NCBI GenBank assembly: GCA_963718895.1
Contig: CAVRAG010000008.1
Span: 1,216,001-1,280,000 of the forward strand
DNA from: an uncultured Nitrososphaerota archaeon
GTDB lineage: Archaea > Thermoproteota > Nitrososphaeria > Nitrososphaerales > Gagatemarchaeaceae
Reading direction: 5' to 3'
Length of the DNA stretch: 64,000 nt
Below the pieces are notes generated by a model. That model was not told the DNA's origin. It searched no databases and worked only from the letters and a program-made list of their open reading frames with translations. The position numbers were made by a program, and so were the translations under genes. Shown piece after piece: positions 1 to 19,274 of this stretch (the first letter of the stretch is position 1; each line of letters begins with the position of its first letter).

Positions 1-88
1 GAGCGAAACCGTACCCGATCGAGACTCCTAGCCCCAGAGCGACGAGCACGAGGGCGACCGAGACCAGAAGAATCCTTCTGACGTGCAA
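1..88 (-). CDS. Partial (N-terminus only) membrane/secreted cassette protein running off the window edge
   Basis: TTG at 88 followed by HVRRILLVSVALVLVALGLGVSIGYGFA (signal/TM); lies downstream of the core repeat at 125-145. Confidence 0.6.
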   Translation of the reverse strand, partial: MHVRRILLVSVALVLVALGLGVSIGYGFA

Positions 89-124
89 CTTCGGTCTTAC
101 CTGAATGACAATTGGCTGCATTCT

Positions 125-225
125 GATTAATAGTTATGTCCGAACGGCAGAGCCACTAGCCGTTTGTTGATTTGAGATGCATAAAAGAGCCATCGCTATG
201 TACAGGGTTCATTGCGCCTCCGCCG
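125..225 (-). repeat. Cassette-boundary repeat, type A copy 1 (21-bp core 125-145 + tail 205-225)
   Basis: GATTAATAGTTATGTCCGAAC...GAGATGC...GGGTTCATTGCGCCTCCGCCG; aligns with 5877-5963 and 6447-6546. Confidence 0.85.
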
Positions 226-552
226 GTGCATTTCATCCACACCTTGAATATCGTAGATCAGGACTTTCGCTAGATACAGGTAAGGCTTTGATGATTGCCC
301 TGAGGATGGGAGCCACCAGAGATGACCGCCGGCGGGGACGTAGACTACTCCATAGTGCGACAACATGTACGAAGCGGAGCCGTAAATCACCAGAGTCGGA
401 GCTGGTTCGATTTCAGTGCAGATGCACATACCATGCTGTGAATACAAGTCATAGGTCGTGACTATCGTCGGGATGATTGGAACGAGGAACAAGAAGGCCA
501 GCACACCAACAGCACCGATGCAGGCTACTGCCACCTTAGTGATGCGCTTCAT
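196..552 (-). CDS. Small membrane-anchored protein (FLxPIIP...YGSxS family)
   Basis: N-terminal TM, Cys pair, YGSASY motif; similar to 2595-2870 and 4917-5216. Confidence 0.7.
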   Translation of the reverse strand: MKRITKVAVACIGAVGVLAFLFLVPIIPTIVTTYDLYSQHGMCICTEIEPAPTLVIYGSASYMLSHYGVVYVPAGGHLWWLPSSGQSSKPYLYLAKVLIYDIQGVDEMHRRRRNEPCT

Positions 553-986
553 GCCATCGCCGAGCCAGCTCTGTAGCCAAGGAGCGTCGAGTTATCGAAG
601 TACATGTGCTGAACCGTGTCGTTGCCCGCAAAGACGTCGACCTCGATCTGGCCGCTCATATTGGGCGAGTAGAAGATTATCGTCTCGATCGAGGCTATGT
701 TAGGCCCCCAGCTGTAGCCGAAGCTCGAGTACGGCTGGACGTGGTACTGTATTCCGTGCGAGAGGGACTGGAACTGGGAGGTGTTCTCTATCATTGGAAT
801 GAGTGACGAGCCGAGGGATGATATCTGTGCGTCACCGGGGTAACCGGGAGGCAGAGTCGGAGCCGCCTGCCCGACCTGGGTACTGGCAGCGGTTCCTGAG
901 ATGTTGAGTCCAACCGCAATCAACAACAAGGTAATCATCGCCGCTGCGGAGATCGAGAGCGTCGCCTTGGCTTGGTGGGATGCCAC
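549..986 (-). CDS. Secreted/membrane-anchored hypothetical protein
   Basis: N-terminal hydrophobic helix; 4-bp overlap with the downstream gene. Confidence 0.7.
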   Translation of the reverse strand: MASHQAKATLSISAAAMITLLLIAVGLNISGTAASTQVGQAAPTLPPGYPGDAQISSLGSSLIPMIENTSQFQSLSHGIQYHVQPYSSFGYSWGPNIASIETIIFYSPNMSGQIEVDVFAGNDTVQHMYFDNSTLLGYRAGSAMA

Positions 987-1013
987 GTCGAACGGGGCAG
1001 CCTTCGTGTCTCG

Positions 1014-1054
1014 GGTTAAGGTTACTTCCGAAGACTCGGAATAAAGTATTTATC
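1014..1054. promoter_or_regulatory. Back-to-back divergent promoters with inverted repeat TTCCGA-N4-TCGGAA
   Basis: GGTTAAGGTTACTTCCGAAGACTCGGAATAAAGTATTTATC; each half resembles the 21-bp core; TATA-like boxes 24-30 nt from the starts at 986 (-) and 1077 (+). Confidence 0.6.
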
Positions 1055-1076
1055 AACAGAGCCATCCTTTTGACCG

Positions 1077-1709
1077 ATGTCGCGAGCTACCTTCGTCCTG
1101 GCGGTGGTCGTCGCGGTCGCGATAGTCAATACCGTGTTTCTGGGAGTCCATCTGGCGAGCCCGTCGGAATCTGGTCCCGCCCTGCAGACCTCAATCACGA
1201 ACCTTGGGACAGGAATCAACGGCTACACCGCTTCGGGTTCCCTCTCCCTCCCGCCAAACAACCAGCCGGCGTTCCAGTTCCTCCTCGCCAACTCTCCGGT
1301 GTTGTCCACGGCCAGTTGGGCGCTGGTAGGAGGCGTCTGGATCTGGCGGGGTAGGATGAAGTCGCGCTGGGAGAGCCTCGGCTTCGACTCTGGCATCTTC
1401 GACCTCTTCATCAAGATGAAGGGAGCCAAGACGAGGTTGAACCTCCTGGATGCGCTCTCGAGGCCGAAGGACAGGCTGCAGCTCGCGCAAGAGCTCGGCC
1501 TTGACTGGAAGGCCGTCGACTACCACATCGTCCTGCTCAACAGGTACGGTCTCGTCCACGAAGACCACGCCTTCGGGAACGTGAGGATGTACACTCTCAC
1601 GAGGCAGGGAGAGGTCCTGCTTCAACTGCTCAAGGAATTCAACAAGGAGATCGTGAGAGGCGCCGAACCGAGCGCTGCTGTCGTCCCCTCTACCCTGCCT
1701 ATCCCATAA
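1077..1709 (+). CDS. Membrane-anchored ArsR-like winged-helix transcriptional regulator
   Basis: Two hydrophobic segments, then TRLNLLDAL...QLAQELGLDWKAVDYHIVLL...YTLTRQG wHTH signature. Confidence 0.85.
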   Translation: MSRATFVLAVVVAVAIVNTVFLGVHLASPSESGPALQTSITNLGTGINGYTASGSLSLPPNNQPAFQFLLANSPVLSTASWALVGGVWIWRGRMKSRWESLGFDSGIFDLFIKMKGAKTRLNLLDALSRPKDRLQLAQELGLDWKAVDYHIVLLNRYGLVHEDHAFGNVRMYTLTRQGEVLLQLLKEFNKEIVRGAEPSAAVVPSTLPIP

Positions 1710-1938
1710 TCAGGGTGCGAAGCCGTTGCCGAAGCTCGTCGAAGAATTGAGCGACAGATGACACGTAATGACTTCAGGAAGCTGTCTGGCTGAACCGTCG
1801 GCCTGATTGGGGCGACGCTGCTCTGTGCGGTATTGCGTCGATGGTGGCCTTGCTCCCAGCGATTACGCTGTTCTGGGTCCTCAGCTGCAGTCCCATCGGC
1901 GGAGGTACGCAGTACTTCTGAGGTCCGAACAGAGGTTA

Positions 1939-2598
1939 TCAGAATTGGACGTACATTATACCCATCCCGCCAACGCTCATAGACACCGGTTGGAACGGTT
2001 GTCCGAACACGCATCCTTGAGGCTGGATGATTGTAAAGTCAGAGGCGTTCACCTGCGACGCCGCGTAGCCTACGGCCAAGGGGAACCCTCCATTGCAAAA
2101 CCCGGTCACGCCGGGGTCGTAGAATCCGGTCGCGTTGCCCAGGGCGGTGACCGTGTACACGACGGTGACGAAGTCTGTGGAGCTCGTCGCCTGTATGGAG
2201 CTTGGAGCACTGGTCACAGTGAAGGAATAGGAGGGGACAGGCAAGCATCCCTTGACGGCGCAGGTCTCGGTTGCCATAAGGAGCGTGAAGTTCTGGGTGA
2301 AGGGCTGGTTGTCGAAGGCGCTCGCCTTGCCTTGCCAACTCGACTGGTACGTCACGCAGACCGTTCCGGTCGACCCGGGCTGCATGAGCCAAACCGGGCT
2401 CGTGTTGGTCGAGGGACTGCCTGCGCTATACACCGGCTCATTGCAGGGCGTGGTGATGGTTACGGTGACTGTGGTCTTCGCTCCTCCGACTGCGACGAAC
2501 AGGCTCGCGGAAATCAGCACGCCGGCTATGATTATCGCCGAAGCGATCACTATGTAGCTCCGGTTGGCGTGGCCGCTTATGGGAGCCGGACCGCTCAA
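1939..2598 (-). CDS. Membrane-anchored secreted Thr/Cys-rich protein
   Basis: Likely TTG start at 2598 overlapping the upstream TGA; TM + Thr linker + beta-rich domain; N-terminus shared with 6557-7405. Confidence 0.75.
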   Translation of the reverse strand: MSGPAPISGHANRSYIVIASAIIIAGVLISASLFVAVGGAKTTVTVTITTPCNEPVYSAGSPSTNTSPVWLMQPGSTGTVCVTYQSSWQGKASAFDNQPFTQNFTLLMATETCAVKGCLPVPSYSFTVTSAPSSIQATSSTDFVTVVYTVTALGNATGFYDPGVTGFCNGGFPLAVGYAASQVNASDFTIIQPQGCVFGQPFQPVSMSVGGMGIMYVQF

Positions 2599-2870
2599 AC
2601 GAAACTCACCAGCGGCCCGTTCGGCTCGGAGAGGACGAAGACTCCGTGCTGGATCAGCGCGAAGGAGATCGAGCCGTAGAGGGGATACAGAAATCCGACT
2701 GGGCAGGAGCACTGAGGGCAGGTCACCGCGCAGGGGGTGGACTGGCCCATCGGGACTATCGGGACGAGGAGCACGAAGAGAAAGGCTGCGACGGCGACTA
2801 CGGTGACTGCAATCGGACCGACCGCTCTCCGATGTTGCACGGCAACTCGGCGGGTGAGAGTGGGATTCAT
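2595..2870 (-). CDS. Small Cys-rich membrane protein (FLxPIIP...YGSxS family)
   Basis: TM, LVPIVP, CAVTCPQCSC, YGSISF; true start may be GTG at 2840. Confidence 0.7.
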   Translation of the reverse strand: MNPTLTRRVAVQHRRAVGPIAVTVVAVAAFLFVLLVPIVPMGQSTPCAVTCPQCSCPVGFLYPLYGSISFALIQHGVFVLSEPNGPLVSFV

Positions 2871-2891
2871 GATTAATAGTTATGTCCGAAC
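2871..2891 (-). repeat. 21-bp core repeat copy
   Basis: GATTAATAGTTATGTCCGAAC, identical to 125-145; followed by AAAAAGCGTGCC, resembling part of the type A element. Confidence 0.9.
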
Positions 2892-2925
2892 AAAATCCCA
2901 AAAAGCGTGCCTACCCCGGCAAGCT

Positions 2926-3312
2926 TCAGTTGAACGGCTGGCAGGGGCTGGGCGTCAATGAAGAGCCTACGGACAGGAAACTGTTCATTGAGGTCACTAT
3001 CGCGATGTCCTGAGTCTCTTCGGCCTGAAGGGTGGCGATCATGCCGGCGTAGCCGGAAGGCTTGGTCGAGTTGAGGGCCGCGATTATCGAGTTGTCCATC
3101 TGTATCTGCTGCTGCATCGCCTGGGTCGTGTTGGAGTCGACTCGATAGGCGGACCCGGCCACGCTCGTGAGGGTGGTGCACACGCTCCTGCCGTCGCTCT
3201 TGAGCGAGGAGATCTGGGCGGTCGCGGTGCTGTAGTAGTATACAAGACTCCCGGCGAGTATCACAATCGTCAGGGCGGCCAAGCCTGCGTAAGTTCTGCC
3301 CCTAGAGTTCAT
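2926..3312 (-). CDS. Membrane-anchored coiled-coil hypothetical protein
   Basis: N-terminal TM, Q-rich helical region; start 28 nt from the core repeat at 3340. Confidence 0.75.
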   Translation of the reverse strand: MNSRGRTYAGLAALTIVILAGSLVYYYSTATAQISSLKSDGRSVCTTLTSVAGSAYRVDSNTTQAMQQQIQMDNSIIAALNSTKPSGYAGMIATLQAEETQDIAIVTSMNSFLSVGSSLTPSPCQPFN

Positions 3313-3339
3313 GATTATCCGGGTTTTGCGGCGCTTGAT

Positions 3340-3600
3340 GATTAATAGTTTTGTCCGAAGGCCATCCTACTCTGCGTTAAGTCCCACACCGGCCATGAGA
3401 CGCGACCGAGGATGGAGTCTCCAAGGCAGGAACAAGCGCTCGTCAGCATGGTCGAGCTGAAGAAGCTGGCCGGGACCAAGCTGCCTCCCTCGAGCGCGCC
3501 GAGGGACCTCATCCTCTCCGAACCGGGCCACCTTCCGAGCGATGAAGCCGCGGTCAAGGCCGCGCTCTACGCCATACTTCTCTATCATGAGCTGAAATGA
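3340..3600. repeat. Type B module copy 1 (21-bp core + spacer + small ORF)
   Basis: Clear nucleotide similarity to 7441-7700, starting exactly at the core. Confidence 0.85.
3412..3600 (+). CDS. Small helical protein (62 aa), paralog of 7514-7729
   Basis: MESPRQEQALVSMVELKKLA...RDLILSEP..LP...LLYHELK; GTTAAG TATA-like box upstream. Confidence 0.7.
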   Translation: MESPRQEQALVSMVELKKLAGTKLPPSSAPRDLILSEPGHLPSDEAAVKAALYAILLYHELK

Positions 3601-3872
3601 CGCAGAGTGTTCACTGACACGGCAGATTGGTCGGGCTCAGACTCGATCTCTCGCACTCTTCTTTGCCGGACGATGACGAAGAGGATGAACAGCACTATGA
3701 TGATTATCGTAGTTAGGAGACTGGCGCCCGATCCCAGACCCGGGAAGAAGTCCCCCAGAGCATAAAGGACGATGCCCCCTATCATTACCGAGGCGATTAG
3801 AAGAGTGGCGAGAGCAACCCAGGTGGTCGTCCCTCTTCGGGTTGTATCCAAATCGATCTTCTTGATTCTCAA
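3585..3872 (-). CDS. Small two-TM membrane protein
   Basis: Two hydrophobic helices followed by a basic patch. Confidence 0.6.
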   Translation of the reverse strand: MRIKKIDLDTTRRGTTTWVALATLLIASVMIGGIVLYALGDFFPGLGSGASLLTTIIIIVLFILFVIVRQRRVREIESEPDQSAVSVNTLRHFSS

Positions 3873-4088
3873 GCCATTCGTTCTAGATGAGCACAGCGCA
3901 ACGCCTCACAAATCTGGCCGCGGCCGGAATGCTGTCAACAACCGATCTTCGCGACGTCTCTGTCACAGGCCAGGAGCGCAATCTGCCGATAACGTGGAGA
4001 GGTGTTGACTGCTGTCCTCGATAGCGTGGCTATAAAGGAGGACGGCGACTAACTGCACATCAATGACCGTAATCGGCGGAGATGAGCA

Positions 4089-4433
4089 ATGAGCGGCGAA
4101 CCTGCGGGGAAGAAGTTCGGCCTTGTCGTCTCCGTCGAGTTCAGGGCGCTCTACCGAATGATGAAAGACGAGCAGATGAAAAGATCGATAGATTCGCTCG
4201 CTGACGCGCTCGAACAGAGGCCTCTGGACGCGGGCGCGTTCGTGCCGAAGGACAGATGGCCCGACGAGTACAGAACTATGGGATTGAGCAACGTCTACAA
4301 GGCCAACCTCGCCAAAGGAGCTAGGATCACCTACACGGTGACCCTGAGTCAAGCCGGAAGCGGTCTAGTAAGGGTGATCGAGTTCTTTCCCACGCACAAG
4401 GATTACGCGAAGAAGTTCGGCTACGGCGTCTAG
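4089..4433 (+). CDS. Putative RelE/ParE-superfamily toxin-like protein
   Basis: Size and pattern (VYKANL..GARITYTV...VRVIEFFPTHKDY) resemble RelE-fold proteins; TATAAA upstream. Confidence 0.5.
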   Translation: MSGEPAGKKFGLVVSVEFRALYRMMKDEQMKRSIDSLADALEQRPLDAGAFVPKDRWPDEYRTMGLSNVYKANLAKGARITYTVTLSQAGSGLVRVIEFFPTHKDYAKKFGYGV

Positions 4434-4723
4434 GCGCGCAGCTTCACGCTCGCCTTGAGGAGCGCTTCCAGCTTGGGGTTCTCGACCGCCACCCAGACGA
4501 CCCTGCCCTTCCCGTCGAACATGATCTTGTTTGACGCCTCCAGGTACTCCAGGACGCCGACGAACGTCTGGTACATCGTCTTCCGCGGGAGGGAGCGCCA
4601 CAGCTGCATCCTTGAAGGCGGGAGATTGCTGTTCTTGATCGCAGACTCCACCATCATGACGGTGTCTAGGGTAGGAGAATGAATCGCAGAACTGTCCTTT
4701 AGTCGATGGGGCTCCTTGAGCAA
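4430..4723 (-). CDS. Small winged-helix protein, candidate antitoxin/regulator
   Basis: HSPTLDTVMMVE...QLWRSLP...YQTF..VLEYLE.SNKI...VVW; convergent with the toxin-like gene, 4-bp overlap. Confidence 0.6.
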   Translation of the reverse strand: MLKEPHRLKDSSAIHSPTLDTVMMVESAIKNSNLPPSRMQLWRSLPRKTMYQTFVGVLEYLEASNKIMFDGKGRVVWVAVENPKLEALLKASVKLRA

Positions 4724-4916
4724 TGTGAGCGCTGGCTGAGCAACGAATTATATAAGTGTATATAGTTTTAATCAAGTTCTACTGCGAGATGGACGACAAC
4801 ACGGACTACTGCCCGCACACGGCCTTCGCGGCGGCTCTGCCACAGGTATGGGGTGCCATCAAGCGCTGAGCAGTACAGGAGGTTCATTACGCCTCGAGCT
4901 CGGCTGGAGGGATGGG

Positions 4917-5216
4917 CTACGGTTGCATGTCGGGGCAGGAGGAACTCAACTCTCCAGCCAGAATGTCTCGGGGCTGAGTAAGATAGTAGCCTCCGTTCGC
5001 CAGCGCAAGAGCTCCGCTTCCAAGATAGCAGAAGCTGATTGAGGCCGACCCTTTGTATACCACACTGCTTCCACAAGAGGGCTGGCTCGTCGCACCGCAA
5101 TTCACCTGATTGCCTGGAGGCGATGCCGAAACGGGAATGACGGGCAAGAAGTAGATGGTAACGAGCAGGGCCACGATGATAACTCCAACGATTGAAATCT
5201 TAAGGAGGCGCCGCAT
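4917..5216 (-). CDS. Small membrane-anchored protein (FLxPIIP...GSxS family)
   Basis: TM, FLPVIP, Cys residues, YKGSASISF. Confidence 0.7.
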   Translation of the reverse strand: MRRLLKISIVGVIIVALLVTIYFLPVIPVSASPPGNQVNCGATSQPSCGSSVVYKGSASISFCYLGSGALALANGGYYLTQPRDILAGELSSSCPDMQP

Positions 5217-5298
5217 GTGTCAGACGGGCGTCTACTTCTATTTACTCTTTGTTTCATCTTACGCTTCGGGTGGGGGAAGAAGAAGTCAAGCCATACCA

Positions 5299-5319
5299 GG
5301 TTTCGTTGCGCCTCCGCCG
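5299..5319 (-). repeat. Type A tail element (degenerate copy)
   Basis: GGTTTCGTTGCGCCTCCGCCG vs GGGTTCATTGCGCCTCCGCCG at 205-225. Confidence 0.7.
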
Positions 5320-5396
5320 CAAAATGCCCCCTTTCGCGATAAACGGCTGCCAAGGTCATAGTCTGCTCTGACACCCGTGGACCCATGACACCCGCA

Positions 5397-5845
5397 TTAG
5401 GGTGGCGCAGTAGGGTGCAATTCCGCGTGTAGCTTCCTGCTATCCAGGGTCCAGGAGCCGCCGATCATCCGCAGGAGGTAGCCGAAGGCGAACACGACGG
5501 CAACGGGCAGCAGGTTCAGCACGGCCCAGTTCGGCGGCTGATGCGTGGTCGACAGGTTGGCCACTCCGATCAGGAAGACGTAGCCGTACGCGAAGAGCTC
5601 CACGGCAACGAGCATCACGGTCCCCTGCCATGAAAGCGTCTTCGAGAACCAGATAGGCAGAAGGAGGAGGTTCAGGAGAAGGAAGAGTGAGAGGCCGTCC
5701 AGCACGTAGCCCCAGAGAGAGAGTCCCGGATAGCACGCGCACGTTCGATGGATGTCACCAAATGAAGCTGAATCGACTCTTCCACGATGAAGTAGACTGA
5801 GGTTGGAACCAGAATCAGTGAGAGGAGCCAGAGTCTGGAGCGCAT
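5397..5845 (-). CDS. Multi-TM membrane protein with apparent frameshift near 5740
   Basis: ATG 5845 gives MRSRLWLLSLILVPTSVYFIV..., continuing in another frame as ...YPGLSLWGYVLDGLSLFLLL; start 32 nt from the core. Confidence 0.55.
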
Positions 5846-5876
5846 CACGCGGTCTTGTTTTGGAAACCGTGTTTCT

Positions 5877-5963
5877 GGTTAATAGACTTGTCCAAGGCAC
5901 AGCCTTTAGCCGCTTGTTAGTCTAAGATACCTCAAAAGGCACGCCACGTATAGGGTTCATTGC
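5877..5963 (-). repeat. Cassette-boundary repeat, type A copy 2
   Basis: GGTTAATAGACTTGTCCAAGGCACAGCC..TAGCCGCTTGTT...AAGATACC..AAAAGGCACGCCACGTATAGGGTTCATTGC; upstream gene's stop codon lies inside the tail. Confidence 0.8.
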
Positions 5964-6421
5964 CTCAGTTGAATCTGGATGCTTCCCGGTCTGCGGAAGG
6001 ACTTGATCAACACGAATATTGAGAGGTTGATCGAAATGACCAGCGCTACGAGAGTTCCCCACCCTTCGGCAGCGCTGGGTATGGAGGGACAGACGCCCGG
6101 TGCGATGGGCTCCGTACTCATACAGGGAGGGGTGGTAACCCACGAGAGCCAGGCTAGGATTGCCACCAGCCCGATTATGACCCCGATGACGGAGATGAAC
6201 TTGATCCAGCGCAGCGCGGGCGTCAACTTGAACCAGTAGGAGTTAATCAGGGCAGCTGACGAGACGGTGATTACCAGGACGAGTGCTGCCAGACAGATAA
6301 GAACCAGCGCGATTCCCCACTCTTCGTCTGTGAGGACAGAGTAGGGCACCAGCCAAATCCACGCCAGGACGCCCACGAATCCGAGACCAATCCCAATCAC
6401 AGACGTGGCTCTCGGATTCAT
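5957..6421 (-). CDS. Four-TM membrane protein
   Basis: Four hydrophobic segments, Cys pair in a loop. Confidence 0.75.
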   Translation of the reverse strand: MNPRATSVIGIGLGFVGVLAWIWLVPYSVLTDEEWGIALVLICLAALVLVITVSSAALINSYWFKLTPALRWIKFISVIGVIIGLVAILAWLSWVTTPPCMSTEPIAPGVCPSIPSAAEGWGTLVALVISINLSIFVLIKSFRRPGSIQIQLRQ

Positions 6422-6446
6422 CGATGGGGGTCCCTTCGGTTCTCAA

Positions 6447-6546
6447 TGTATACGCCTTTGTCCGAACATAGTGCCTAGGCGCGGTCTGTTTCAGGGAGAT
6501 GCCGAAAGAAAGGCATGCCATGTATGGGTTCATTGCGCTTCCGCCG
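6447..6546 (-). repeat. Cassette-boundary repeat, type A copy 3
   Basis: TTTGTCCGAAC...GAGATGCCGAAAGAAAGGCATGCCATGTATGGGTTCATTGCGCTTCCGCCG. Confidence 0.8.
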
Positions 6547-6556
6547 GGGCATATGG

Positions 6557-7405
6557 TCAAGGACAAAGGAAGGATGGACCATGAATCGCGACCGTCACGT
6601 CCGCTCCGCTCACCGTGACGTTGCCAGAAGTGGGGTAGAGCACCTGGTTGGGGCTGACGGTGTAGTTGTAACTCCCACTAGGCAGCGAAAAGACGATCAA
6701 AGAATAGTTCACGTACGCCGGTGACCATCTCGCTTCTGTGTTGGGTATGGGAATGCTCGCGTTGGCCGGCGCCGCCTCCGTCCATCCGCCGAGGGTGACC
6801 GACCAAGGAGCTTGATAGACGGTGGGAATGATGCCGCACGAACCCGTCTCCTGGAACGTCACCTGGTACAGCCGTGCCGCCGTCAGGAAGACGGAGGGCG
6901 CTGTACGGACCGTCAGGAGGAGCGAACCATCCTGCACGATCCAGTCGATGTGCAGGAACCCGCCGAACATCGTCGCGTTCGCGGGGGCGGGTAGGGCCGC
7001 GCTGAACCCTCCCGGCCATGAGAAGCTGGCGTTCTGCGGCGGGATGATCACGCAGCTTAAGCTCGGCGGGCAGTTCTGGTCTATCTCGAAGGAGACCGAG
7101 GTGCCTGAGAGCTGTGAACAGGAGACCTCGTTGGCGGTGACGCATGAGGGAGACCACGTGTCGTTGATGAGGTAGTCCCCGACCGCGAAATCCCCCGGGA
7201 TGTCCGTAGGACGCGCGACCTGCAGAGTGACGTTGCTGCCGAAGAGGTAGGTCGCCTTCGCCGTCGTCGTCACCGTGGTGGTCGTCGTGCTGGTTGTGGT
7301 CTTCGCTCCGCCGATTGCGACGAACAGGCTCGCTGAAACAAGCACCCCCGCTATGACTATCGCCGCAGCAATCATGAGATAGCTCCGAACCGGCTGAGAG
7401 CTCAA
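6557..7405 (-). CDS. Membrane-anchored secreted protein with Thr linker and C-terminal archaeal surface-protein-like beta domain
   Basis: TTG 7405; RSYLMIAAAIVIAGVLVSASLFVAIGGAKTT; C-terminal YQVTFQETG...WSVTL...F.LPSGSYNYTV...SGNVTVSG pattern typical of thermopsin/S-layer-like repeats. Confidence 0.75.
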   Translation of the reverse strand: MSSQPVRSYLMIAAAIVIAGVLVSASLFVAIGGAKTTTSTTTTTVTTTAKATYLFGSNVTLQVARPTDIPGDFAVGDYLINDTWSPSCVTANEVSCSQLSGTSVSFEIDQNCPPSLSCVIIPPQNASFSWPGGFSAALPAPANATMFGGFLHIDWIVQDGSLLLTVRTAPSVFLTAARLYQVTFQETGSCGIIPTVYQAPWSVTLGGWTEAAPANASIPIPNTEARWSPAYVNYSLIVFSLPSGSYNYTVSPNQVLYPTSGNVTVSGADVTVAIHGPSFLCP

Positions 7406-7440
7406 ACCGAAGCGCCTTGAATCGTCGCGCCGGGCTTTGC

Positions 7441-7729
7441 GATTAATAGTTTTGTCCGAACGCCATCCCAACCCTGCGTTAAATCCCCCGCGGGCCATAA
7501 TACGCGACTGAGGATGCAGTCTCCCAAACAGGAACAAGAGCTCGTGAGCATGATCGACCTGAAGGACCTCGCTCGGACCATGCTCCCAGCCTCGAGCGTC
7601 CTTAGGGACCTGATACTGTCGGATCCAGACTACCTGCCGCGCGACTCGGCCGCAGTAAAGGCGCAGACCTACGCCCGCCTGCTCTACCTGGAGCTCAAGA
7701 GTTCACGGACCGACCACCGCACCGTGTGA
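7441..7729. repeat. Type B module copy 2 (21-bp core + spacer + small ORF)
   Basis: GATTAATAGTTTTGTCCGAACGCCATCCC..CTGCGTTAA...ACGCGACTGAGGATG; homologous to 3340-3600. Confidence 0.85.
7514..7729 (+). CDS. Small helical protein (71 aa), paralog of 3412-3600
   Basis: MQSPKQEQELVSMIDLKDLA...LRDLILSDPDYLP...LLYLELK. Confidence 0.7.
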   Translation: MQSPKQEQELVSMIDLKDLARTMLPASSVLRDLILSDPDYLPRDSAAVKAQTYARLLYLELKSSRTDHRTV

Positions 7730-8027
7730 TCCGCGCTTTCCCCGCTGGTCGGACAGCAGTGGATACAAGCTAAGTTCGTCGCCCGACCCGCCCGCGGGCA
7801 TCTGCGAATCCGCGACAGAGGAATCCTTATCACTCGGCGCGTTGAAATCCGACGCGGAGGTCAAGCAAGTGAGATACTCACCGAAATCTCCTCCTCTATC
7901 CCCACCTAAAATGGTAGGTAAATGTCCGGCCGCCCCCACCACCTTTGACTTGCAGAGCGGCCGCTGAAGCCCCTCACGATTATAGACTTAATGCTGGCGA
8001 GATTGGCGCCATTCGCGGGCCCACATC

Positions 8028-14175: not shown

Positions 14176-14784
14176 GTGGGTGTGCAATCGCGCGTTGTGC
14201 GTGTTCGACGTACACGGGGCTATATACCAAGGTTGGCTCTTACTCTGTTGGATTCCACGAGGGTCTGTAAGAAATGCGGCAGGGAGCTGTCGGTTTCGTG
14301 CTTCTACCAGTCGCCTAGGTCAGGAACAAGATACAGTTGCAAAGAATGTTTTCTAAGGATGGGCGCAAACTATAGGAAATCACATAGAGAAAGTAAGAAG
14401 CGATGCTACAGAGATTACTCGATCAAGAATCCCGGAGGGCGATGGGCCATCGCCTGCCTCGCTGGGCACAGAAGGAGAGGGTTCACGACGGAGATTATAA
14501 CAAGGGAACTCTACCAGATGGCTTCGGCGACGGAGATGTGTTACATATGTGACATGCAATTGAACTGGGAGCTAGGAAACAAAGGTAAGATAAAGAGCAA
14601 CAGCCCCACATTGGATAGACTTGACAATGAGAAGGTGATAAGGAAGGACAACGTCGTGATTCTCTGTTACCGATGCAACGCAACCAAATGCGACAGAAGT
14701 ATGGGCGAGTTCCTATTGTATTGCTATTCAGTGGTCGCTAAACTTCACTCACACTTCGAATATCCACAGCTTGTGCATTTATAG
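14176..14784 (+). CDS. Free-standing HNH-like endonuclease with N-terminal Zn finger (start uncertain)
   Basis: CKKC...CKEC, CYIC, SPTLDRLDNEK....DNVVILCYRCNATK; lower GC than flanks. Confidence 0.75.
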   Translation: MGVQSRVVRVRRTRGYIPRLALTLLDSTRVCKKCGRELSVSCFYQSPRSGTRYSCKECFLRMGANYRKSHRESKKRCYRDYSIKNPGGRWAIACLAGHRRRGFTTEIITRELYQMASATEMCYICDMQLNWELGNKGKIKSNSPTLDRLDNEKVIRKDNVVILCYRCNATKCDRSMGEFLLYCYSVVAKLHSHFEYPQLVHL

Positions 14785-17021
14785 CACCCTCCTTCGAAGA
14801 TTATCGCGTTCTCGCCGCAGTCCGGGCACGTACCCCCTTGCACGAGTGGGGAGCTTGCCTCTTTGGTCACGCGCCCCGCCACCAGAACCTCCAGCGCCTT
14901 GGCGGTCGCGTCGGGGATTGACAGCAGCTGTACGCCCTCATCCCAGGAGACGTACTTGCCTCTGATGCCCTTCATCATCCTTATGACATTCTGTATGTCT
15001 CCTCCGTGCTGCAGGTAGAGGCTGATGAGACGTCCTATCGCCTCGGCGTCAGCCTTCTCGTCCCCGCCGAGCTTGCCAAGGGTTACGAAGACCTCCTTGA
15101 GCGCGCCCGCCTCGTCGGTGTTCGCGGTCACGTACAGGCTGCCCTGGGGGAGCTTGAGCTTCAGCGTCCTGCCGATCAGCACCTTCGGCCTCTCGAACTC
15201 GGACATGGTCTTCTGTTCCGTCTTCTTGTCGACGTTCTTGGTCTCGAGGATCCCCTCCCTGCTCCCCTCGCGATAGATCGTTATGCCCTTGCAGCCGAGC
15301 TTCCACGCGAGGAAGTAGATCTTCTCGACCTCTTCAGTGGAGATGTCCTGGGGCAGGTTGACAGTGCTGGAAATCGCAGTGTCGATGTGCTTCTGGATCG
15401 CGGCCTGCATCCTGACCCTCATCTCCGGTCTTATCTGGTGGGACGTGACGAAGTAGGACGGCAGCTGCCTCTCGTCGGTGATCCGGTGCACCTGCATGTA
15501 GTCCTTGACGAGCGGATGGAAGACCTTGAACTCACCCTCGCTCAGCGATTTGCTCCTCCGGGTGTAGGAGAGGGCGAAGACCGGCTCGACGCCGCTCGAG
15601 CACGCCGCGAGTATCGAGCCTGAGCCGACTGGCGGCACGGTCGTCACCGCCGAGTTCCTGATGCCCTGGGTCTTGATCTTCTCCTTCACCTTCTGGTCGA
15701 GCCTCTGGATGAACGGCTGTGCGAGGTGTTTCTCAGCGTCGAAGGCCGGGGCCGGCCCCTTCTCCGCGGCCAGGTCGGTCGAGTAGTCGTAGATTACGTT
15801 CTTGATGCGCTCGAAGAGCTTGTCGACGAACTCCACCGTCGCCTCGTCGTCATATTTCAGGCCGAGCTTGATCAGCATGTCGCCCAGACCTGTTATCCCA
15901 ACCCCAATCCTCCTGCTCCAGAGAGACGCCTGCCGCTGCTGCGGGAGGGGGTGTCTGTCGGCGTTGTAGTCCAGCACATTGTCCAGGAACCTCGTCGCGT
16001 AGTGAGAGGCCTGCACCAGCCCGTCCCAGTCGATGCTGGCTCGTTCGGTGAACGCGTCCTTCACGAAGTAGGACAGGTTCACAGACCCAAGGCAGCAGCA
16101 GCCATAGTTCTCGAGCGTCTGCTCGCTACAGGGGTTCACCCCCTGCACTTCCATGTTGTTGTACTCGGTCGTGGAGTCCCTCTTTATCGTGTCCCAGAAG
16201 AGCAGACCCGGCTCGTCACTCTGCCACGCCGCCTTCACCAGCTGGCTCCAGATCGTCCTCGCCTTCACGGTCTTGTGGAAGTCGACTCGTTCGTTCTTGA
16301 AGCGAAGCTCGAAGTCGGTGTCTCCCTCCACGGCCTTCATGAATTCGTCCGTCATCTTGACTGAGACGTTCGCGTAGTTGACCTTCTTGAGGTCCTTCTT
16401 GACGTTGATGAAGTCGAGTACGTCAGGGTGATCGACCCTTATGGAGATCATCAGGGCACCCCTCCTCCCGGCCTGCCCAATCGTGCCTGTGGTCGTGGAG
16501 AGCAGCTCCATGAAGGAGACTGATCCGGTGCTGTATATCGCGGAGTTGTTCACCGGTGAGCCGCGCGGCCTGAGGATGGATATGTCGGTGCCGACCCCCC
16601 CTCCGAAGCTGTACGTCCGCGCAGCTTCCTTGCACCAGTCGAAGATCGCCTCTATCGAATCCTCCTTAATCTTGAAGAAGTAACAGTTCAGAAGAGTAGC
16701 CCTCCTCGGCTGCCCTGCGCCGAAGAGAATCCTTCCTCCGGGTACAAACTTGAAGTCCTCCAGGAGCCAGTAGAACTTCTCGGTCCACTCCTTCCTCTTC
16801 TCCGGCTCTTCGACCGAGGCCAGCTCGCGCGCCACCCTTAGCCAGAGCTGGTCAGGGGTCTTCTCCACCTGTTTTCCGCCCGCGTCTCTGAGCGCATACT
16901 TCTCGTAGAACACCCTCGACCTTAGCTCGTCTCCGCCGAAGACGTCCAGGGTCTCCTGAGGTAGAGTGATTTCCTCCTTCTGTCCCTTCTCCGAGTCTTC
17001 CGGTTTTTCTATTGCAGTCAT
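14745..17021 (-). CDS. nrdJ: Class II (adenosylcobalamin-dependent) ribonucleotide reductase
   Basis: PGGRIL, LLNC, GGGVG, NPCSEQ, CCLGSVNL, ISSTVNLP, KGITIYREGSR; C-terminal TSCPD-like domain and Zn ribbon. Confidence 0.95.
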   Translation of the reverse strand: MTAIEKPEDSEKGQKEEITLPQETLDVFGGDELRSRVFYEKYALRDAGGKQVEKTPDQLWLRVARELASVEEPEKRKEWTEKFYWLLEDFKFVPGGRILFGAGQPRRATLLNCYFFKIKEDSIEAIFDWCKEAARTYSFGGGVGTDISILRPRGSPVNNSAIYSTGSVSFMELLSTTTGTIGQAGRRGALMISIRVDHPDVLDFINVKKDLKKVNYANVSVKMTDEFMKAVEGDTDFELRFKNERVDFHKTVKARTIWSQLVKAAWQSDEPGLLFWDTIKRDSTTEYNNMEVQGVNPCSEQTLENYGCCCLGSVNLSYFVKDAFTERASIDWDGLVQASHYATRFLDNVLDYNADRHPLPQQRQASLWSRRIGVGITGLGDMLIKLGLKYDDEATVEFVDKLFERIKNVIYDYSTDLAAEKGPAPAFDAEKHLAQPFIQRLDQKVKEKIKTQGIRNSAVTTVPPVGSGSILAACSSGVEPVFALSYTRRSKSLSEGEFKVFHPLVKDYMQVHRITDERQLPSYFVTSHQIRPEMRVRMQAAIQKHIDTAISSTVNLPQDISTEEVEKIYFLAWKLGCKGITIYREGSREGILETKNVDKKTEQKTMSEFERPKVLIGRTLKLKLPQGSLYVTANTDEAGALKEVFVTLGKLGGDEKADAEAIGRLISLYLQHGGDIQNVIRMMKGIRGKYVSWDEGVQLLSIPDATAKALEVLVAGRVTKEASSPLVQGGTCPDCGENAIIFEGGCYKCTSCGYSKCE

Positions 17022-17189
17022 TATGTACCACTTATTGCGAATTGCGCACTTTCACCCATTGCAGGTATATATCTCTACGACGCGAGATTGAAGTTGACCT
17101 GCGACGTTCTCTGCATGCTGAATCGGGAGTCAGTGAGACGCTCTTGGGTGAATTAATATTGACTTGTAGTCAATCGAATTTGTCATAAT

Positions 17190-19274
17190 TCATTCGGCCG
17201 TCGAGTAAAGAGTCGTCGCGGTTGACTTGCACTTCTTGCACCTTCCCGAGTCTGGCGGGAGCTTCGCTCCACAGTTCCTGCAGAACGAGACGGGTCTGTG
17301 CACCCTGAAGAACGGGATGCTCGAGGAGGCGGCCAGCATCATCTGGTAGGTTCCCCTGAGATCTGCCGCCGAGGCGTCGAGAATCACCGAGAAGCCCCCA
17401 GCGAGACCTCCGGAGAGCTTCGTGACATACTCGATCTTCTCCTGGTTCTGCAGGTCCTCGGGCGAGAGCCTCGGCGAGAGGGAGTAGCCCTGGCGGCCTC
17501 CCGCCTGTAGGCTGGCCTTGCCGTACTTCTCGGCATCAAGCGCCGCAAGCCTCTGGGCGCCCTCTTCCTCGATTATCGCGACACCGAGCCTCGCGTTCTT
17601 CGCTGATTTCTCCGAGGAGACTTGCGAAGCGGTCTGGATGATCTTCTCGGCAATCGACGACCTGGCCCCCAGGGAAGGGTCCTTCGTCAGGTTCGAGAGG
17701 GCTTCCTCTAGGCCGACGAGGTTCATCACCAGAGGCATGGCGTCTGTGCTCACCCCCTCTGAGCCGAAGCTGAGCGTCGGTAGGAGGCCCTTCTTCATGA
17801 CGCGCTCCAGGACCATCCTCCTTGTGGTGAGCGCGTCGGCCGCCACCCCTATGAGCATTGCCAGCTTCGCCCTGAAGTAGGTCTCATCCTGGTTCGAGTC
17901 GTAGGAGAGCCGCGGCAGGTTGAGGCTGAGGTTGTGGAGGACGCTGACGTGGTCCCCCTGGAGCTCGGCGGGGAGGATGTCGGGGTTGATTCCCAGCGAG
18001 CTTCTCTTCTGGCCGGACGGGAAGAGCGCAATCCTTCCTCCTGCGAAGATCGTGGAAGCCGCGTCCTTCAGGAACCTGTTGTCGTCCTCCTTGAGCTTCG
18101 CCAGCAGTATCCTGACCTCAGGCCTGGGTACCTGGTCAACCAATCCCCTGTATGCTTCGAGGGTGGCGTCGAGCACCTTCTCTATGAGTTCCCTTCCGGT
18201 CTCGTCCTTGACGTACGGGTCGAGCTCTAGCGCGATCATCGGCCTCTGGGAGGAGGGGAGCTGCGAGGAGGCCTGGTCGAGGAACCTGAGGATAGCGTCG
18301 ACGATCTCGTGCTTCGTCTTGGAGCGGGTGAACGGGGCGAGGTACTGGAGGAAGTTCCTGTACACTATCTCGACGGAAGCCTCCCTCCTGATCAGGGAAG
18401 TGATGTTGGATATTATCGTCATGGCGGACTCCAGCCCTTCGGGGCTCGGTATGATTGGGGCGTAGGGGAGCCTGCCCTTCGGGTTGAACCCCGACGCCCT
18501 CACAGAGAGGAGGTCGACGAATATCGTATCCGGCGTCAGCCCCCAGCTTCCCGCGTCGGCGATGTGGATGTCACCAGCCAGATGAGCGTCTGCGACATCG
18601 CGCGGAATCTGCTCCAGGAGGAGGTACTCGGAGAAGACAGACTTACCGGTCTGGTGAAGCAGCGACTCCACGTCGCTCCCGTCGTCTCCGGCCCTCGCCA
18701 GCAGCTGGGTGACGTCGTAGACCGGCAGCCCGAGGCGCGTAAGCTTGTGCCGATACTCCTCGAGGTTGTGCTCGACCAGGAGCGAGTTGACCATCTCGCG
18801 GATGAGCGGTGCGGTCAGATACTGGGTCTGGAACTTGTAGAGCCGCGACTCTGTCTCGCTTGTTATCTTCTGCGCGAGCTCGACGGGCATCCCCGCCTCC
18901 TTGACCAGGGATTGCAGGATCTTGTCGGCGTTGAACTCCTCCATCGCTTGCCGGGACGACCTTACGTAGAGCTTTCCGCTCTCGACCAGGGACTGTTCCT
19001 CGATCTGGCGCGTCAGGTTCAAGACCAGCCGCCCCAGGTTGGTCACGGTGTACTTCCTCTCCTGCCTGTTGAGCTGTATCAGGAGCTGCCTCACGAGCTT
19101 CCTCAGGTGATAAGCGAACTTCCCGGACTCCTTCTTCGACTTGAAACCTGCGAGCGTCTTGAGGGCGCTGTAGGTCAGGGGGCCCTTGACGTTCAGAATC
19201 TTCAGAATCTCCAGTCGCTGAGGTGATGCGATTACACTGTAGATCGTCTTGACTCTTCGCGGTGCTGCTTGCAA
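17190..19274 (-). CDS. HTH + ATP-cone + NrdD-like (anaerobic RNR-related) fusion protein
   Basis: N-terminal wHTH (ESGKFAYHLRKL), ATP cone (EEFNADKI..SLVKEA...LTAPLIRE), AHLAGDIHI, SLNLPRL; C-terminal CRNC..CKKC. Confidence 0.8.
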   Translation of the reverse strand: MQAAPRRVKTIYSVIASPQRLEILKILNVKGPLTYSALKTLAGFKSKKESGKFAYHLRKLVRQLLIQLNRQERKYTVTNLGRLVLNLTRQIEEQSLVESGKLYVRSSRQAMEEFNADKILQSLVKEAGMPVELAQKITSETESRLYKFQTQYLTAPLIREMVNSLLVEHNLEEYRHKLTRLGLPVYDVTQLLARAGDDGSDVESLLHQTGKSVFSEYLLLEQIPRDVADAHLAGDIHIADAGSWGLTPDTIFVDLLSVRASGFNPKGRLPYAPIIPSPEGLESAMTIISNITSLIRREASVEIVYRNFLQYLAPFTRSKTKHEIVDAILRFLDQASSQLPSSQRPMIALELDPYVKDETGRELIEKVLDATLEAYRGLVDQVPRPEVRILLAKLKEDDNRFLKDAASTIFAGGRIALFPSGQKRSSLGINPDILPAELQGDHVSVLHNLSLNLPRLSYDSNQDETYFRAKLAMLIGVAADALTTRRMVLERVMKKGLLPTLSFGSEGVSTDAMPLVMNLVGLEEALSNLTKDPSLGARSSIAEKIIQTASQVSSEKSAKNARLGVAIIEEEGAQRLAALDAEKYGKASLQAGGRQGYSLSPRLSPEDLQNQEKIEYVTKLSGGLAGGFSVILDASAADLRGTYQMMLAASSSIPFFRVHRPVSFCRNCGAKLPPDSGRCKKCKSTATTLYSTAE

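Follow-up and report, generated by a model that had tools for sequence, protein, structure and literature searches.

Gene cassettes of integrons are separated by attC sites, whose imperfect inverted repeats (R''/L''...L'/R') form a single-strand hairpin, and the gene for the integrase IntI is located adjacent to them in divergent orientation. Tandem integrative elements at the 3' ends of stable-RNA genes are known from Prochlorococcus as tycheposons, and archaeal regulon promoters exist in which the site of a transcription factor is fused to the B recognition element (BRE) and the TATA box. Archaeal integrons with canonical attC sites have been described by Ghaly et al. 2022 (PMC9668308), with at most 12 of these sites per contig. 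An example of units that integrated repeatedly into the 3' end of a gene for a stable RNA is provided by the ssrA islands of Dehalococcoides (PMC3146451). The DNA analyzed here, a window of 64,000 nt (positions 1216001 to 1280000 of contig C8 of G000, a 3.13-Mb archaeal assembly with 59% GC), contains at its left end, positions 1 to 7729, a series of small genes and short repeats that the initial annotation interpreted as an array of gene cassettes punctuated by a conserved 21-bp core, integron-like albeit not with attC sites. Two repeats have to be distinguished at this site, the 21-bp core, GATTAATAGTTWTGTCCGAAC on the plus strand, and the E repeat, formerly the "type A element," with the 20-mer GGCGGAGGCGCAATGAACCC at its heart. 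The earlier interpretation is partly supported, but it was attached to the wrong repeat: in the reading that we consider likely, the core is a promoter, and the E repeat, a copy of the end of the 23S rRNA, is the cassette junction.

Coordinates without a contig name are those of the window; C4, C7, and C8 are contigs of G000. The relative genomes compared with G000 were G001, G002, G005 to G010, G013, G015, G018, and G033, with G007 being complete and a single contig. Copies of the core were matches with up to 3 mismatches in G000, up to 2 mismatches in the genomes of the genus and the family, and up to 1 mismatch in those of other families, and copies of the E repeat in G000 were matches to the 20-mer with up to 3 mismatches. 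The gene sets used for genome-wide counts were crude calls of open reading frames (ORFs).

Exact copies of the 20-mer, as read on the gene strand, number 15 in G000; allowing up to 3 mismatches gives 81, of which C8 has 67 on its minus strand. Rfam located the 23S gene at C8:1568000-1572001 and, directly before it on the same minus strand, the 16S gene, and the Rfam model of the large subunit rRNA ended 8 nt before the first 20-mer. This indicates that the first E copy is the real end of the 23S gene. The main array begins at this genuine 3' end, which C8 carries 350 kb to the right of the window, and comprises 63 E copies in one orientation between C8:1441758 and C8:1567992 (126 kb), mostly 0.6 to 2.5 kb apart. 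A semi-conserved arm upstream of many E copies (GTCGACTTACCATAGCCCAACGTGTGGATGAA) is the last approximately 35 nt of the 23S rRNA; many copies thus share more than 20 bp, namely, this arm and as much as about 75 nt of trailer. The first 20-mer pairs with the 5' leader of the 23S rRNA in a long duplex of -95.6 kcal/mol, which makes the 20-mer the 3' strand of the processing stem of the pre-23S rRNA. Cassettes at the RNA level, flanked by both strands of this stem, were ruled out because the leader strand occurs as a single copy. A use of the E repeat as a peptide gene was also rejected, as the frame of 19 codons on the opposite strand contained a stop codon in three copies and its third positions were not freer than the others. 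The 23S genes themselves are about 4.0 kb long in G000 (C8:1568000-1572001) and about 3.9 kb in G007 (C1:1592999-1596884) compared to the model of 2,987 nt, pointing to insertions, and Rfam identified a group I intron inside the 23S gene of G007 (L118:9779-10154).

One or two genes are located between the E repeats of the main array, 123 on the strand of the array and 72 on the other strand. Parts of toxin-antitoxin systems identified by Pfam were PIN domains in at least 15 ORFs, MazE/AbrB, HicA/HicB, CcdA, DUF433/DUF5615, TumE, and Fic, and the other cargo included GNAT and SDR proteins, MFS and ABC transporters, thermopsin, NHL-repeat proteins, and cyclases. A block of four genes at C8:1546863-1553106, encoding a zinc-ribbon protein, a Double-GTPase-like protein, and proteins of 603 aa and 828 aa without a Pfam family, is situated in an 18.8-kb gap between repeats next to the gene for a 1,587-aa TIG-domain surface protein; this block may be a defense system carried as one large cassette. 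The layout in G007 was the same, with 40 E repeats in one orientation, starting from the 23S 3' end and extending over 65 kb. Within the family, the E repeat was found in 52 of 57 genomes and 7 of 8 genera, with several genomes containing 10 to 17 copies. Elsewhere in the order, 14 of 194 genomes gave a single hit each, which is about the level of the control with the reversed pattern.

With integrons, the main array shares the long series in one orientation, the short cassettes of one or two genes that are each followed by a conserved site, the richness in toxin-antitoxin genes, an order and content that vary between relatives, and the occurrence of arrays with no adjacent integrase, similar to clusters of attC sites lacking an integron integrase (CALIN). 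Unlike in integrons, the site is a 20-bp stretch of identity derived from the 23S trailer, the rRNA operon serves as the anchor of the array, many cassettes come with a promoter of their own, and the arrays are far longer than the 12 attC sites per contig given in PMC9668308. An attC-like hairpin was not found in the E repeat when 10 copies were folded on both strands (z scores between -1.06 and +2.82 compared to shuffled sequences), so that the former statement that these are not attC sites holds for this repeat as well, and a divergent gene for IntI was not adjacent to the array. Because both the attC structure and the adjacent IntI are missing, the system was not classed as an integron. In the 60 kb scanned with Rfam, no family matched the E repeat or the core, and only the rRNAs and a group II intron were recovered.

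The tandem islands at tRNA and tmRNA genes are similar in other respects. Their direct repeats copy the 3' end of the target, the first repeat completes the gene, later integrations push older units outward, and the cargo modules can be without an integrase of their own. As is characteristic of such a duplication of an attachment (att) site, the E repeats correspond to the 3' end of their target, with the first copy in the intact gene and all copies in one orientation, in G000 and likewise in G007. The differences are the target, which is the trailer with the processing stem of the 23S rRNA, and the units, which number at least 60, are mostly 0.6 to 2.5 kb long, and contain one or two genes. 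In contrast to these islands, none of the units in the array ORFs contained a recognizable integrase.

The arrays of G000 and G007 had only five blocks in common, at 89 to 95% identity and in a different order, and in four of these five the homology started and ended at the 20-mer, even where the adjoining arms differed completely. This comparison was extended to six stretches, namely, the main array of G000, an island on C4, the region of the window, the G007 array, and pieces of G033 and G015, which yielded 15 blocks of at least 250 nt with at least 85% identity. In 8 of these 15 blocks, both ends were located within 25 nt of the edge of the 20-mer in both copies, mostly within 15 nt. One of the eight was a cassette with 93% identity between the rRNA-linked array of G007 and the C4 island of G000, in opposite orientation. 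The E repeats could be real borders without the action of a dedicated enzyme if the 20 to 130 bp of 23S end and trailer had recombined homologously after uptake or conjugation, with unequal crossing-over in addition. No recombinase family in or beside the arrays, the extended arms and trailers shared by many copies, and the conjugative-type elements of the genome are in agreement with such an origin. The eight blocks ending at both sides near the 20-mer even next to completely different arms are not, and neither is the multiplication of just the trailer strand, in one orientation and from a genuine gene end, a pattern characteristic of units integrating again and again at a single att site. 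Homologous recombination as the only process is for these reasons unlikely, and we infer that a dedicated enzyme rather than general homologous recombination performs the crossover. The 20-mer would accordingly be the attachment site of a cassette system, in which recombination inside the 20-mer would insert or remove cassettes of one or two genes and exchange them between species.

The 21-bp core behaved differently from the E repeat. G000 has the core 24 times without a mismatch and 48 times when up to 3 mismatches are allowed, on both strands and following the direction of the genes. When the 48 copies were aligned by the motif, the information content dropped to zero within 2 to 3 nt on each side, both flanks being unconserved. 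Such sharp edges indicate that the site itself is conserved and not a duplicated segment. In 46 of the 48 cases, the gene-strand motif GTTCGGACAWAACTATTAATC was followed within 90 nt by the opening of an ORF with a length of at least 35 codons, with the chosen start codon 22 to 40 nt behind the core in 37 of these 46 ORFs in a manual count. The products had an N-terminal hydrophobic anchor in 38 of 46 cases, compared to 585 of the 3,095 crude gene calls (odds ratio of 20, Fisher p = 4e-20), and most of the anchored products consisted of the single anchor followed by a Thr/Ser-rich sequence with an even number of cysteines. The regions before 322 unambiguous ATG starts of G000 had an AT-rich peak at positions -24 to -35, and an expectation-maximization search of upstream regions of this genome returned the consensus AAAnnTTAAATA, a grammar into which the ACAAAAC-TATTAAT part of the core fits, in agreement with the BRE/TATA-like box noticed earlier on its minus strand. 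The core combines an AT-rich TATA box, an A-rich BRE upstream of it, an orientation toward the gene, and a fixed distance, and it does not display any dyad symmetry.

An E repeat was found within 200 nt upstream of 9 of the 48 cores, and none within 3 kb of 25 of them, while 9 of 99 E repeats were followed by a core. None of the 16 cores of G007 was located inside its cassette array. Cores that are often remote from E repeats and absent from the G007 array indicate that the core is independent of the cassette repeat. Most likely, the 21-bp core is a shared promoter/operator for genes of secreted proteins and not a recombination site, and we infer its promoter activity from the features listed. 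In GTTCGGACAWAACTATTAATC, ACAAAAC-TATTAAT would act as BRE and TATA box and the upstream GTTCGG as operator, and the core would drive a genus-specific regulon for small secreted or membrane-anchored Thr/Ser-rich proteins with even cysteine numbers. The initial annotation had set an ordinary promoter or operator against its own interpretation, and this is the behavior found, with promoter spacing and a core in front of a regulator gene conserved across species. As in known archaeal regulon promoters, the core is a fixed motif at promoter distance, oriented to the gene and common to functionally related genes; unlike in these, 21 positions are invariant in 24 copies, the motif occurs in essentially one genus, and it is tied to secreted proteins and a membrane-tethered regulator. 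The core itself is an unusually rigid element, albeit of an ordinary kind.

Among the 22 other genomes of the genus, 19 had the core, as did the one genome of a second genus; it was absent from the 47 genomes of 8 further genera of the family and from the 12 genomes of other families. It is restricted to essentially one genus. A winged helix-turn-helix (wHTH) protein, encoded at 1077-1709, has 9 matches in G000 and at least 1 match in 21 of the 22 other genomes of the genus. The promoters of two wHTH paralogues, C4:303598 and C8:104790, contain the core with 4 and 3 mismatches, respectively, and a core variant is situated on the same strand upstream of the wHTH orthologue in G006, G008, and G009, as it is in G000. 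Because wHTH genes carry core variants in their own promoters, this family was proposed as the factor belonging to the core. Judging from these promoters, the wHTH family is most likely the cognate, autoregulated factor of the core regulon, and membrane-tethered wHTH regulators, among them that of 1077-1709, would read the core. A TFIIB encoded by mobile genetic elements was considered for this role and rejected, since of 23 genomes of the genus only 6 had a close homologue (at least 48% identity) and the core-rich genomes G002, G007, and G013 had only a housekeeping-type TFIIB match of about 31 to 33%, with the caveat that genomes are incomplete.

At its left end, the window holds a satellite cassette array; the 5' edge of several of its cassettes is formed by the putative secretome promoter. 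Its features are as follows.

125-145, minus strand: exact 21-bp core, GTTCGGACATAACTATTAATC on the gene strand, putative BRE/TATA promoter with upstream operator; the gene behind it has a TTG start at 92-90, an N-terminal membrane anchor, and runs off the left edge of the window
196-986, minus strand: two overlapping small genes, 549-986 (145 aa) and 196-552 (118 aa), with membrane-anchor-like N termini and no Pfam family
204-242, minus strand: E repeat (type A) with a tail to about 146, 97% identical to the 23S 3' end plus trailer
1034-1054, plus strand: diverged core variant ACTCGGAATAAAGTATTTATC, read from the sequence, 22 nt before the ATG of the wHTH gene
1077-1709, plus strand: two-pass, membrane-tethered wHTH regulator (HTH_20/HTH_45-like; Pfam hits below the curated cut-offs)
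1939-2840, minus strand: two-gene unit of 2595-2840 (81-aa Cys-rich membrane protein) and 1939-2577 (212-aa anchored Thr-rich protein)
2871-2891, minus strand: exact 21-bp core, GTG 30 nt downstream, putative promoter of the 2595-2840/1939-2577 unit
2926-3312, minus strand: 128-aa N-terminally anchored protein
3340-3360, minus strand: 21-bp core with 1 mismatch, ATG 27 nt downstream, putative promoter of 2926-3312
3412-3600, plus strand: type B module with a 62-aa ORF, divergently transcribed, paralogue of 7514-7729
3439-4870, no strand assigned: module S1 with genes 3585-3872 (minus), 4089-4433 (plus), and 4430-4723 (minus), no Pfam family
4881-4905, minus strand: degenerate E repeat behind gene 4917-5216, weak match to the trailer (15 nt, 93%)
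4917-5216, minus strand: 99-aa anchored Cys-rich protein with an ordinary TATA box (TAAATAG) and no core; third extra cassette compared to G010
5299-5325, minus strand: E repeat, 20-mer with 2 mismatches, behind gene 5397-5900
5397-5900, minus strand: membrane-protein gene in two overlapping frames (5672-5848 and 5397-5900) with a decayed core at 5877-5897; second extra cassette
5934-5963, minus strand: partial E repeat (3' part of the 20-mer plus trailer, tail to 5898), 90% over 30 nt
5957-6421, minus strand: 154-aa multi-pass membrane protein behind the half-core 6447-6467; first extra cassette
6509-6552, minus strand: E repeat, 20-mer with 1 mismatch, plus trailer (tail to 6468), at the end of a block 97% identical to G010
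6557-7405, minus strand: 282-aa anchored Thr-rich protein with 6 Cys residues, from the large MSSQPxRSY paralogous family
7441-7461, minus strand: exact 21-bp core, TTG 35 nt downstream, putative promoter of 6557-7405
7514-7729, plus strand: second type B ORF, 71 aa, divergent from the 7441 core

The E repeat at 204-242 consists of the last 11 nt of the 23S rRNA and 28 nt of trailer, with the exact 20-mer at 205-224 (C8:1216205); gene 196-552 runs into it, and 59 nt separate it from the following core at 125-145. In the two-gene unit 1939-2840, the TTG start of 1939-2577 overlaps the stop codon of 2595-2840, and a paralogous unit with 88% identity at C4:277879-278299 has its homology ending at the core. 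The two type B ORFs are 68% identical and the only two in G000, each about 72 nt away from a core, and homologues of the type B DNA stand beside cores in G010, G002, and G007. Module S1 was counted as a four-gene module and contains the convergent overlapping pair 4089-4433 (plus) and 4430-4723 (minus).

The six core copies described initially were reduced to four full ones, three exact (125-145, 2871-2891, 7441-7461) and one with 1 mismatch (3340-3360), in comparison to no match at all in 100 dinucleotide shuffles. The distance to the likely start codon, put at about 25 to 40 nt before, was measured as 36, 30, 27, and 35 nt for these four. At 5877-5897, no match with up to 3 mismatches exists, and 6 mismatches were counted by eye; this site precedes gene 5397-5900, which is probably a frameshifted pseudogene, its promoter decaying with the gene. 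The site at 6447-6467 has, as had been said, only a half in common with the core, that of GTCCGAAC, here as TTTGTCCGAAC, together with a different TATA-like half, GTATACAT on the gene strand. The GTCCGAAC half-site noticed at 1923-1930 is present, and a further copy at 2001-2008 was read from the sequence.

Cargo order and content, proposed earlier as a check, differed between relatives. Module S1 was 96%, 95%, and 92% identical to G001, G010, and G007, respectively, and 6526-7461 was 96.6% identical to G010, while the housekeeping flank from about position 7971 onward had 73 to 77% identity to G001, G002, G005, G007, and G010. Identities of 92 to 96% for S1 beside flanks of 73 to 77% point to a recent transfer. 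In the sister genome G010, the 6526-7461 block is followed after 30 nt by the 3439-4847 module; the window has three extra units in between (4848-6525), at roughly 6525-5964, 5963-5326, and 5298-4906, each ending in an E repeat. This part of the former interpretation, a cassette-like array in which short sites join different cargos, is thereby borne out. G007 contains the modules of the window in another order and on the other strand. The same chromosomal site in G002 had six cores in one orientation with other cargo, and that in G005 none in the 12.6 kb compared. For the A-type ATPase, the best matches came from metagenome-assembled genomes of Thaumarchaeota/Nitrososphaeria, and the archaeon may belong to Group I.1c, a lineage that does not oxidize ammonia. 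The metagenomic DNA runs that share words with the window came from peat and soil, with small shares. In short metagenome contigs, the recurrent breakpoint 4847 was joined to the E repeat through 31 other letters; two further sites of breakage, 204 and 241-246, led to many different flanks, among them one with the sequence of the genuine 23S end. A second satellite island is located at C4:263000-303000, with 15 E repeats on both strands and at least 12 cores; the trailer-like tail of its E repeats, ahead of the core, is longer and of another kind (…GGCTTCAGGCC…GGTTCGCACG…).

Paralogy of several cargo genes (the MSSQPxRSY family and the family of 81-aa Cys-rich proteins) might also suggest that nothing is mobile here and that a fast-evolving island of tandemly duplicated surface-protein paralogues keeps its regulatory and terminator regions under selection, and the T-runs in the trailer-like tails could serve as terminators. 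Such an island would have to account for modules with 92 to 97% identity beside the 73 to 77% flank and shuffled in order and orientation in G007, for the insertion or deletion of three cassettes bounded by E repeats, and for an "intergenic region" that is a copy of the 23S rRNA end, which makes a non-mobile origin highly improbable.

The core seemed to punctuate the array of the window because several of the cassettes bear the secretome promoter at their 5' edge. That the 21-bp core itself is the crossover site of an integron-like or Xer-like recombinase, with each cassette reconstituting its promoter there, was the model of the initial annotation. Homology between copies had been stated to stop on the cargo side of the core. 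Instead, it runs from the core into the gene and ends at the outer (GAAC) end of the core, as in the paralogue and orthologue blocks 2471-2891, 7280-7462, and 6526-7461. The exact ends of the 97% identical G010 block and of the paralogue blocks at this edge (7461, 2891) would suit a crossover there, but any block holding a conserved promoter appears to end at the promoter edge. The interchangeable flanks on the outer side of the core, type A, type B, or unique DNA, were seen as described before and agree with a crossover site, as do the unusual tightness of the 24 exact 21-mers and the two tyrosine recombinase genes 22 to 25 kb to the left; these integrases, however, belong to an island of the conjugative type with VirD4, ParB, and TFIIB. 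Single cores precede conserved genes, such as that of the wHTH regulator in four species, on both strands and following the gene direction, and a crossover site does not need a fixed spacing to the start codon. Few cores near a cassette repeat and the 16 cores of G007, all outside its array, also speak against this function. A core that is the crossover site is therefore very improbable. With the core as a promoter and the E repeat as the junction, the window would be a satellite array in which some cassettes happen to bear the secretome promoter at their 5' end.

Several observations weigh against the core as a promoter and the E repeat as a cassette junction. In the boundary comparison, 6 of the 15 blocks ended at an E repeat at neither end and 1 of 15 at one end only, and three block ends in the window (7461, 2891, and 7462) were exactly at the outer end of the core and not at an E repeat. 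A conserved promoter would produce such apparent ends at the edge of the core; some exchanges may nevertheless use the core or stop there. The TATA-like part of the core is about 10 nt further away from the start codon than the usual TATA position of the genome, which we take to mean short leaders, and the identity of 21 of 21 positions in 24 copies is far tighter than expected of an ordinary archaeal promoter. Transcription from an archaeal promoter starts about 25 nt behind the TATA box; none of the runs on record as RNA contained the stretch. Circle junctions between two cores or two E repeats were absent from four DNA runs, which offered short contigs only and are uninformative either way. 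No recombinase domain was identified by Pfam in 152 array ORFs, and the single PF00589 match of G007 is 36 kb away from its array.

The statement that no recombinase is encoded in the window holds for the 22 window ORFs searched with Pfam, which had no recombinase domain, and for the PF00589 matches of the genome, none of which is inside the window; the window as a whole was not scanned. The suggested look to the left led to two tyrosine recombinase genes in C8:1190962-1193692, 22 to 25 kb from the window, in a conjugative-element-like island. In G000, PF00589 matched at C8:1339140, C8:1191328, C8:1192853, and C4:99048, with one match below the threshold on C7, and none of these was beside the rRNA-linked array.

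Near the 23S end of the main array, on the opposite strand, an uncharacterized ORF is located at C8:1564356-1565654. Its G007 homologue is separated from the first repeat by 74 nt, those of G015 and G033 are found within arrays, and paralogues in G009 and G018 are outside of arrays. The protein had no sequence match in Pfam, NCBIfam, or PDB and about 150 representatives among 1.8 billion proteins, and 20 longer relatives gave no Pfam family. The PD-(D/E)xK nuclease superfamily is characterized by a restriction-endonuclease-like alpha/beta core with a D...(D/E)xK motif; in 25 sequences of the candidate, D273 was invariant and E287 and K289 were nearly invariant. The AlphaFold2 model had a pLDDT of 87. 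The C-terminal part, residues of approximately 228 to 344, resembled PD-(D/E)xK nucleases with middling scores, the VIA Z values being 7.0 for the exonuclease 3syy, 6.5 for Hjc (1gef), 6.5 for the splicing endonuclease 2zyz, and 5.8 for I-Ssp6803I, all below the level of 8 at which the tool considers a match clear, and a Foldseek search of the model against PDB gave no match at E values up to 0.001. From the predicted fold, this PD-(D/E)xK-like protein may be regarded as a weak candidate for the array recombinase. A still wider interpretation would be a family-wide, integron-like capture of genes without attC and IntI, with the 3' strand of the 23S processing stem as the att site, a new enzyme for which the PD-(D/E)xK-like protein is the candidate, and satellites seeded between species; we would put this forward only tentatively, as it is on balance rather doubtful.

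The region to the left of the window, C8:1155000-1216000, contains two related conjugative-element-like islands in tandem (loci L089 to L092). In the left one (C8:1164-1193 kb), Pfam identified TraG/VirD4 (1171080-1173506), ArdC-N, ParB-N, a TFIIB homologue (1166027-1187), and the two tyrosine integrases. The second island copy is at C8:1201-1212 kb, and a third TraG, 71% identical, is encoded at C7:468477 beside three cores. Thaumarchaeal integrative and conjugative elements with a VirD4/TraG ATPase, ParB, a TFIIB homologue, and tyrosine integrases have been described by Krupovic et al. 2019 (PMC6563490), and the left flank has VirD4/TraG, ParB-like, TFIIB homologue, and integrase genes together, like those elements; this likeness concerns the neighborhood and not the core or the E repeat. 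The second TFIIB-like copy (C8:1203045-1209997) is in three pieces, separated by ORFs for group II intron reverse transcriptase/maturases (1203643-1205397 and 1207319-1209073), and Rfam found a group II intron domain at L092:807-904. Short fragments corresponding to the C-terminal 40 to 85 residues or so of two proteins of the island (C8:1178833-1180782 and 1181763-1183763) are found again beside integrase-like genes on C5, C9, and C11, at C4:387-389 kb, and at C8:1302-1305 kb, and may be remnants of att sites of other integrative elements. Inside the window, at 14745-19274, a class II-type ribonucleotide reductase with a TSCPD domain adjoins an anaerobic NrdD-like reductase, which is fused to an N-terminal HTH/DUF7347 and an ATP-cone.

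In the literature on archaeal integrons, Gagatemarchaeaceae, and 23S integration or islands, no description of rRNA-linked cassette arrays or of the core promoter was found, with supplementary tables, which could list these genomes, outside the scope of the search; the term "rRNA" is absent from the main text of PMC6563490. The rRNA-anchored cassette arrays match what recurrent integration into a stable-RNA gene at its 3' end leaves behind, and they deserve follow-up. The most eye-catching repeat, the core, was the ordinary one, and its "flank," the E repeat, the unusual one. If the reading proposed here is true, an element of rRNA processing can act as a hotspot of integration, and a second, mechanistically distinct route to integron-style gene storage would exist in Archaea, in a family abundant in acid soils and peat, with arrays five times longer per contig than the published archaeal integrons. 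The 21-bp promoter, one motif with one candidate family of regulators, would provide a handle on the control of the secreted proteome in an uncultured archaeon.

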